In this document: positions 10,249 through 10,302 of the stretch, piece by piece
How positions within the stretch are numbered: position 1 is the first letter of the stretch
Layout: the number at the start of each line of letters is the position of its first letter
Assembly (NCBI RefSeq): GCF_051903065.1
Contig: NZ_CP178438.1
DNA length: 64,000 nt
Strand: one strand, 5' to 3'
Origin: Escherichia coli
Lineage (GTDB): Bacteria; Pseudomonadota; Gammaproteobacteria; Enterobacterales; Enterobacteriaceae
Translations under genes and position numbers: made by a program
Notes under the pieces: generated by a model
Databases searched by the model: none
Told to the model about the DNA's origin: nothing
Seen by the model: the letters and a program-made list of their open reading frames with translations, nothing else

Positions 10249-10283
10249 AAACCAGGCTTGATTATAGCCTGGTTTCATTTGAT
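10249..10283 (-). terminator. araBAD rho-independent terminator
   Basis: Minus-strand hairpin aaccaggc...gcctggtt followed by a U-tract, immediately downstream of the araD stop. Confidence 0.7.
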
Positions 10284-10286
10284 TGG

Positions 10287-10302
10287 CTGTGGTTTTATAC
10301 AG
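10287..10302. promoter_or_regulatory. LexA (SOS) box CTGTGGTTTTATACAG upstream of polB
   Basis: CTGT-N8-ACAG palindrome about 56-71 bp upstream of the polB start; polB (dinA) is a known SOS gene. Confidence 0.65.

Follow-up and report, generated by a model that had tools for sequence, protein, structure and literature searches.

Based on the sequence of the araD–polB junction, its folding, published transcription start sites and a comparison of related species, we are confident that the 74-bp spacer between the two genes is a nested terminator and promoter under LexA control. Direct support exists for the sequence elements and the fold, for the identity to a published site, for the polB starts mapped in two species and for the pattern seen across species. 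That the −10 element and the start site of polB lie inside the hairpin follows directly from public start-site data. The arrangement of operator and terminator is already known and is ordinary biology. A first-pass annotation of this DNA had described it as known, compact regulatory architecture, a description that our analysis supports, but it missed the order of the parts, with the terminator downstream of the operator, and the placement of the polB −10 element and start within the hairpin.

The window analysed here is a stretch of 64,000 nucleotides from Escherichia coli (RefSeq assembly GCF_051903065.1, contig NZ_CP178438.1) that carries the araBAD–polB region. A 1-kb piece around the site is 100% identical to several complete genomes and is found, annotated as araD and polB, in 5,395 of 5,426 genomes. 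According to the list of open reading frames and the RefSeq annotation of the 100%-identical E. coli genomes and of K-12, araB, araA, araD and polB are all encoded on the minus strand. The translation of araD starts MLEDLKRQ at the K-12-equivalent ATG (11001) and its stop codon is TAA (10308..10306). The spacer has the same length in K-12, from which it differs at 2 of its 74 bases (T for C at 10277, A for C at 10262), both outside the box and the stem. The order on the coding strand is araD stop, LexA box, hairpin and polB GTG, and operator, promoter and terminator fit together within 59 bp. The features are as follows.

14383..12683, minus strand: araB (ORF list, RefSeq annotation)
12672..11170, minus strand: araA (ORF list, RefSeq annotation)
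10306..11001, minus strand: araD coding sequence, last gene of araBAD (ORF list; RefSeq annotation of the 100%-identical genomes and K-12)
10285..10304, minus strand: polB LexA operator, the 20-mer GACTGTATAAAACCACAGCC (identity to K-12, published motif, conservation in 80/80 loci)
10284..10289, minus strand: putative weak −35-like element CAGCCA, 3/6 matches to TTGACA, 17 bp upstream of the −10 (sequence and start-site geometry)
10266..10276, minus strand: 5′ arm of the hairpin, GAAACCAGGCT, with the core CCAGGCT at 10272..10266 (folds, conserved pairs)
10261..10266, minus strand: polB −10 hexamer TATAAT (−12..−7), TATACT in K-12 (sequence, mapped start 7 nt downstream)
10259..10265, minus strand: hairpin loop ATAATCA (fold, orthologue alignment)
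10246..10258, minus strand: 3′ arm AGCCTGG (10258..10252) and T6 (10251..10246), where araBAD transcripts are expected to end (sequence, fold)
10254, minus strand: polB transcription start (K-12 65803), in the 3′ arm (Kim et al. 2012, PMC3415461 Table S1)
10232..10253, minus strand: rest of the 23-nt polB 5′ UTR, UGGUUUUUUGAUGGAUUUUCAGC, with a weak Shine-Dalgarno-like GGA at 10242..10240 (sequence)
7880..10231, minus strand: polB (DNA polymerase II) coding sequence, GTG start at 10231, 783 codons (ORF list, RefSeq annotation)

Read 5′ to 3′ on the minus strand, the spacer thus runs from the TAA (10308..10306) through GACTGTATAAAACCACAGCC (10304..10285), CAATCAAAT, GAAACCAGGCT (10276..10266) and ATAATCA (10265..10259) to AGCCTGG (10258..10252), TTTTTT (10251..10246), GATGGATTTTCAGC and the GTG (10231). 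An Rfam scan of the whole window gave no match in the araD–polB spacer. Elsewhere in the window it returned gathering-level matches to PssrA, STnc40 and two tandem copies of naRNA4 (CssrE), a set located at 50122-50211, 55858-55927, 56331-56407 and 56447-56524, together with the expected SgrS (22711-22937), Leu leader (27696-27845, minus strand) and TPP riboswitch (19845-19944). The neighbouring araA–araD spacer (11002-11169) measures 168 bp here versus 284 bp in K-12. It contains one REP-type unit and a GC-rich palindromic element, CCCCTCGCCCCTTTGGGGAGAGGGCCGGGGTGAGGGG (11024-11046), present as a single copy in the window, at the place where K-12 has two further REP units. The element resembles the boxC repeat family. 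Several Enterobacter and Lelliottia loci (for example L031, L032, L034, L042 and L074 of the comparison described below) have similar elements in the interval from araD to the LexA box of polB.

What identifies the LexA operator? The LexA box of polB/dinA and its control within the SOS response belong to textbook knowledge, and both the operator and the regulation were reportedly described in earlier studies of the E. coli K-12 dinA/polB locus. In the window, the 16-mer core CTGTATAAAACCACAG (10302..10287, minus strand) matches the LexA consensus CTG-N10-CAG, usually CTGT-N8-ACAG. Its reverse complement, CTGTGGTTTTATACAG, is found on the plus strand at 10287-10302, exactly where the first-pass annotation had placed the box, which also lies, as it had stated, between the araD stop (TAA, 10308..10306) and the polB start (GTG, 10231) of the minus strand. 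The comparison with the annotated dinA/polB site that it had recommended is unequivocal: base for base, the box is the published K-12 motif, ATGACTGTATAAAACCACAGCCAAT, which is located upstream of a UV-induced transcript (PMC3009722). The whole 20-mer GACTGTATAAAACCACAGCC and its distances to the araD stop and to the polB GTG are the same as in K-12; the operator carries no differences, and only spacer bases 10277 and 10262 distinguish the window strain from the K-12 locus. Relative to the mapped polB start site, the 20-mer occupies −50..−31.

Pattern and score speak less clearly. CTGT-N8-ACAG is found three times in the window against 0.66 expected, a number reached in 6 of 100 shuffles, and is by itself weak evidence for a LexA site; the two further matches are at 16568-16583 and 19775-19790. 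The polB box is said to have a heterology index of about 12, among the weakest of the functional boxes. With an oriented, leave-one-out matrix built from 17 published sites other than polB (Table 4, PMC3009722), it scores 11.6-12.9 bits, which puts it second or third among 128,000 positions; its heterology index is 12.59, versus 0.4-8.9 for the 17 training sites. Two sites tie with it, at 27870 and 50981. The first, TACTGGATACAAAAACGGAT (27870-27889), is situated 25 nt upstream of the leu leader and the second is TGCTGGTTAACATCACAGCG (50981-51000). These other LexA-like matches in the window are probably due to chance and illustrate how poorly the matrix discriminates among weak sites. A symmetrised matrix, with which the box came 12th at 6.6 bits, was dropped because it suits neither the orientation of the published sites nor the asymmetry of the box.

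The matrix score is therefore mediocre, and the identification relies on known-site identity, geometry and conservation. The first-pass annotation had held that a poor score against a LexA matrix would speak against the box. The score obtained is in effect a poor one, but for the polB box, a documented site, a low score cannot serve as refutation, and its identity stands. Could the match nevertheless be fortuitous, with LexA controlling polB from elsewhere? The heterology index of 12.6, the equal-scoring chance sites and the marginal excess of three matches over 0.66 would allow it. However, the box is the published polB motif (PMC3009722) and lies at −50..−31 of a mapped start; its CTG and CAG are invariant in 80 loci, with the spacing to the −10 fixed at 20 nt in 78 of the 80, and the matrix scan of the window found no better site near polB. 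It is the identity to the K-12 motif, the fixed position at the start site and the invariance of CTG/CAG in 80/80 loci that lift the box above chance, and we regard a fortuitous match as scarcely credible. We conclude that polB is probably under LexA control through this 20-mer, as the literature holds; its induction by UV light is taken from the published transcript data (PMC3009722).

The remaining promoter elements are embedded in the hairpin. The −10 hexamer TATAAT takes its first base from the end of the 5′ arm and its other five from the start of the loop. A C at −13 (GCTATAAT; GCTATACT in K-12) resembles sigma-S-type −10 elements. Upstream, no recognisable −35 hexamer is present at a distance of 16-18 bp: the best that the geometry offers is CAGCCA, with three of six consensus bases, which overlaps the end of the LexA 16-mer core (10289..10287) and falls almost wholly within the 20-mer. 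Since the −35 matches at three of six positions only, a consensus promoter scan called no promoter at polB. Other SOS promoters with LexA over the −35 likewise have the operator upstream of the −10 and overlapping a weak −35; what sets polB apart is that the rest of its promoter also serves as terminator for the operon upstream, and that its box has one of the poorest heterology indices. With the operator over a weak −35, repression would act by exclusion of polymerase, as in other SOS promoters.

Start-site mapping places the beginning of the polB transcript within the 3′ arm. In E. coli, polB starts at K-12 position 65803 on the minus strand (2 reads, 23-nt 5′ UTR; Kim et al. 2012, PMC3415461, Table S1), which a local offset of 55,549 converts to window position 10254, the T in AGCC-T-GG. 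The upstream 51-mer listed in the same table, GACTGTATAAAACCACAGCCAATCAAACGAAACCAGGCTATACTCAAGCCT, begins exactly at the LexA 20-mer. The K. pneumoniae start (...TATAATCAGGCCTG, 24-nt UTR, 4 reads; PMC3415461) is 1 nt further downstream along the equivalent arm, in GGCCTG. The E. coli start puts TATAAT at −12..−7. On tiling arrays the UV-induced polB transcript starts at about 10257, some 3 nt upstream of 10254 (PMC3009722). The mapped starts rest on 2 and 4 reads from uninduced cells; low read counts are to be expected of a LexA-repressed gene in undamaged cells, although they are still a weakness. A Cappable-seq supplement had no entry for the araD–polB site. A second start of 2 reads has been assigned to polB (PMC3415461) at K-12 65946, equivalent to window position 10397 on the minus strand, inside araD, 166 nt ahead of polB; RNA initiated at this point would need to read through the terminator. 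Taken alone, the polB 5′ UTR showed no significant RNA structure (−2 kcal/mol, z = +1).

Is the hairpin a terminator? Its core stem pairs CCAGGCT (10272..10266) with AGCCTGG (10258..10252) around the loop ATAATCA (10265..10259), and the element reads (GAAA)CCAGGCT-ATAATCA-AGCCTGG(TTTT), with A/U extensions to 10276 and 10248 and the T6 at 10251..10246. It has the form of an intrinsic terminator, with a 7-bp core that contains five G-C pairs and extends to 11 bp, a 7-nt loop and U6. The minus-strand RNA of 46 nt folds at −19.4 kcal/mol (z = −5.3, with none of 200 shuffles as good); the energy is −10.8 kcal/mol for the core stem only and −15.6 kcal/mol for the extended stem. The stem starts 29 nt past the araD stop. 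The hairpin claimed by the first-pass annotation is thus real and on the same minus strand as araD and polB. Its limits, given as 10249-10283, agree roughly with the fold once extended by an outer AUCAA/UUGAU helix, whose ends are at 10283 and 10243. The LexA box, said to abut it, is indeed close, but 10 nt intervene between the 16-mer and the base of the stem. In RNA initiated at the ara promoter and reading through, the outer helix (10243-10247 with 10279-10283) pairs part of the polB Shine-Dalgarno-like GAUGGA, and polB mRNA initiated at its own promoter does not contain the partner strand. Conservation of this helix in other genera is not obvious.

Earlier work is said to have described a Rho-independent terminator after araD, and the palindrome has reportedly been treated as such in more than one study. 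Compared with that known terminator, the stem, the T-run and the position are the same here and only a loop base differs. We infer that the hairpin is the intrinsic terminator of araBAD, of moderate strength (7-nt loop, core of −10.8 kcal/mol, U6); that transcripts actually end at it is presumed from the literature and from this form.

A terminator scan called the hairpin on the plus strand only. On the minus strand, maximal stem extension absorbs four of the six T's, the tail criterion then fails and the call is missed; we treat the plus-strand call as an artefact of the stem-extension rule. One might still envisage a bidirectional terminator that also stops antisense, plus-strand transcription out of polB: besides the scan result, the stem has an A-run before it and a T-rich stretch after it on the plus strand, and the plus-strand RNA folds at −28.3 kcal/mol. 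We consider this very unlikely, as no plus-strand gene converges on the site, the plus-strand tail CAUUUGAUUG is a poor U-tract and the plus-only call comes from the scan rule.

To place the spacer in a wider context, 80 Enterobacteriaceae loci were compared, one genome per species having been scanned with the first 400 residues of PolB. All 80 loci keep CTG-N10-CAG, although the spacer sequence next to it is conserved at only 30-50%. Between the LexA box and TATA[AC]T lie 20 nt in 78 loci and 21 nt in the other two, and the −10 hexamer is TATAAT in 68 of the 80 and TATACT in 12. Loci were counted as araD-adjacent when araD lay within 352 bp upstream (57 loci, some with inserted repeat elements). 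In 19 others, among them Salmonella, several Citrobacter, Phytobacter and Pseudocitrobacter, 700-1,470 bp and other open reading frames separate araD from polB (L005, L008-L010, L015-L019, L021, L025, L030, L037, L038, L049, L053, L058, L070 and L077). The small inserted frames encode either proteins of about 130-160 aa on the opposite strand or predicted membrane proteins of about 170-210 aa on the same strand. In Enterobacter, Kosakonia and relatives the arrangement is tighter than in E. coli: the LexA 20-mer begins right at the araD stop or overlaps it, as in CAGTAAACTGTATATAAACCCAG (L024, L026-L028, L040, L046, L055, L060, L063, L067 and L076).

A hairpin was scored as intact if its stem had 7 or more pairs, with 4 or more G-C pairs, and was followed by 4 or more T's. 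By this measure 53 of the 57 araD-adjacent loci have an intact hairpin, versus 4 of the 19 with an insertion (Fisher p = 4e-9, a value that ignores phylogenetic non-independence). Exceptions exist in both classes, araD-adjacent and araD-separated. In the insertion loci the LexA box and CCAGG[CT]TATAAT stay with polB, as in the adjacent loci, and several of them have a different hairpin and T-run right after araD. These patterns suggest that the promoter half travels with polB and that the terminator half is kept mainly where it would be able to serve araD. LexA boxes were not significantly stronger in the insertion loci (medians 7.8 and 8.8, p = 0.41), and the orientation of the inserted frames showed a mixed relation to hairpin loss and did not explain the exceptions.

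The same data bear on whether the palindrome is a working terminator at all. It might be kept as polB promoter or initial-transcribed sequence, or as a CCWGG pair, and araBAD might end elsewhere or by Rho. Consistent with such a reading, loci that have lost the 3′ arm still conserve the 5′ arm and TATAAT, and the Term-seq tables, from cells grown without arabinose induction, list no araD 3′ end. In 52 distinct orthologous sequences, moreover, stem covariation was not above that of shuffles, although the core pairs form in 90-100% of the sequences and 86% of alignment cells are paired. The stem is conserved without compensation partly because its 5′ arm doubles as promoter DNA. The covariation result is uninformative rather than contrary. 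Against a non-terminating palindrome, the promoter can do without the 3′ arm and T-run, which have been lost in 15 of the 19 insertion loci, all of which keep box and −10, yet they are kept in 53 of 57 araD-adjacent loci; and a 7-11 bp stem with U6, placed directly behind an operon's final gene, is what an intrinsic terminator canonically looks like. We thus give little credence to a non-terminating palindrome and retain the nested terminator and promoter.

Within E. coli, the hairpin occurs in two main forms. Exact matches to its 33-mer number 2,396 for the TATAAT form, the allele of the window, and 2,927 for the TATACT form of K-12, and together account for 98% of 5,426 genomes. The two alleles differ in the loop only and share the same stem. 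For the whole 74-bp spacer, 401 genomes are identical to the window and 2,457 to K-12. The polymorphic position, 10262, is at once the fifth base of the polB −10 and a base of the terminator loop, and TATAAT is also found in O157:H7 and O145. The exchange between TATAAT and TATACT could shift promoter strength or sigma-S preference without affecting the stem.

How would such a nested element work? Transcripts from the araBAD promoter would pass the araD stop and the LexA operator, form CCAGGCU-AUAAUCA-AGCCUGG followed by U6, and terminate. The polB promoter would share that DNA, with its −10 TATAAT at the junction of 5′ arm and loop. LexA dimers at −50..−31, over the poor −35, would exclude RNA polymerase until RecA-stimulated cleavage of LexA in the SOS response. 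Transcription of polB would then start at 10254, in the 3′ arm, and the mRNA would enter polB after a leader of 23 nt. As its start lies within the 3′ arm, the polB mRNA does not contain the 5′ arm, so that no terminator would be formed and the transcript would not terminate itself. With the terminator downstream of the operator, a normally placed promoter would have to fire through the terminator, a difficulty that is resolved by a promoter inside it.

Does the nesting have a regulatory role? As an addition to this model, it is possible, if rather unlikely, that arabinose-driven polymerases displace LexA or occlude the promoter, and that leaky read-through yields LexA-independent, arabinose-dependent expression of polB. 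The terminator is only moderate (7-nt loop, core of −10.8 kcal/mol, U6), and operator, promoter and terminator are crowded into 59 bp. Read-through of the araD terminator is reported to raise polB, which counts in favour of the idea. On the other hand, araD and polB are not neighbours in 19 of 76 species, which show no obvious compensating change. Our literature searches on arabinose read-through into polB returned nothing relevant. More doubtful to us is the nesting as a coupling device, in which LexA bound 10 bp upstream of the stem, and polymerase or sigma factor bound at the −10 in the loop DNA, would alter the efficiency of araBAD termination, or arabinose-driven polymerases would strip LexA or occlude the promoter.

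What are the implications of the nested terminator and promoter? Were coupling true, polB output would integrate sugar availability and DNA damage, and the TATAAT/TATACT polymorphism in the loop would tune promoter strength while leaving the terminator untouched. Beyond correct annotation the site itself has little significance, being the standard E. coli polB SOS operator and araBAD terminator. In strain construction, the polB promoter can be lost or changed when araBAD is deleted as far as polB or when DNA is inserted after araD, as the terminator hairpin is also part of what drives polB. Across the family, the comparison illustrates dual-use DNA: every locus retains the promoter half, and the terminator half persists mainly in company with an adjacent araD.
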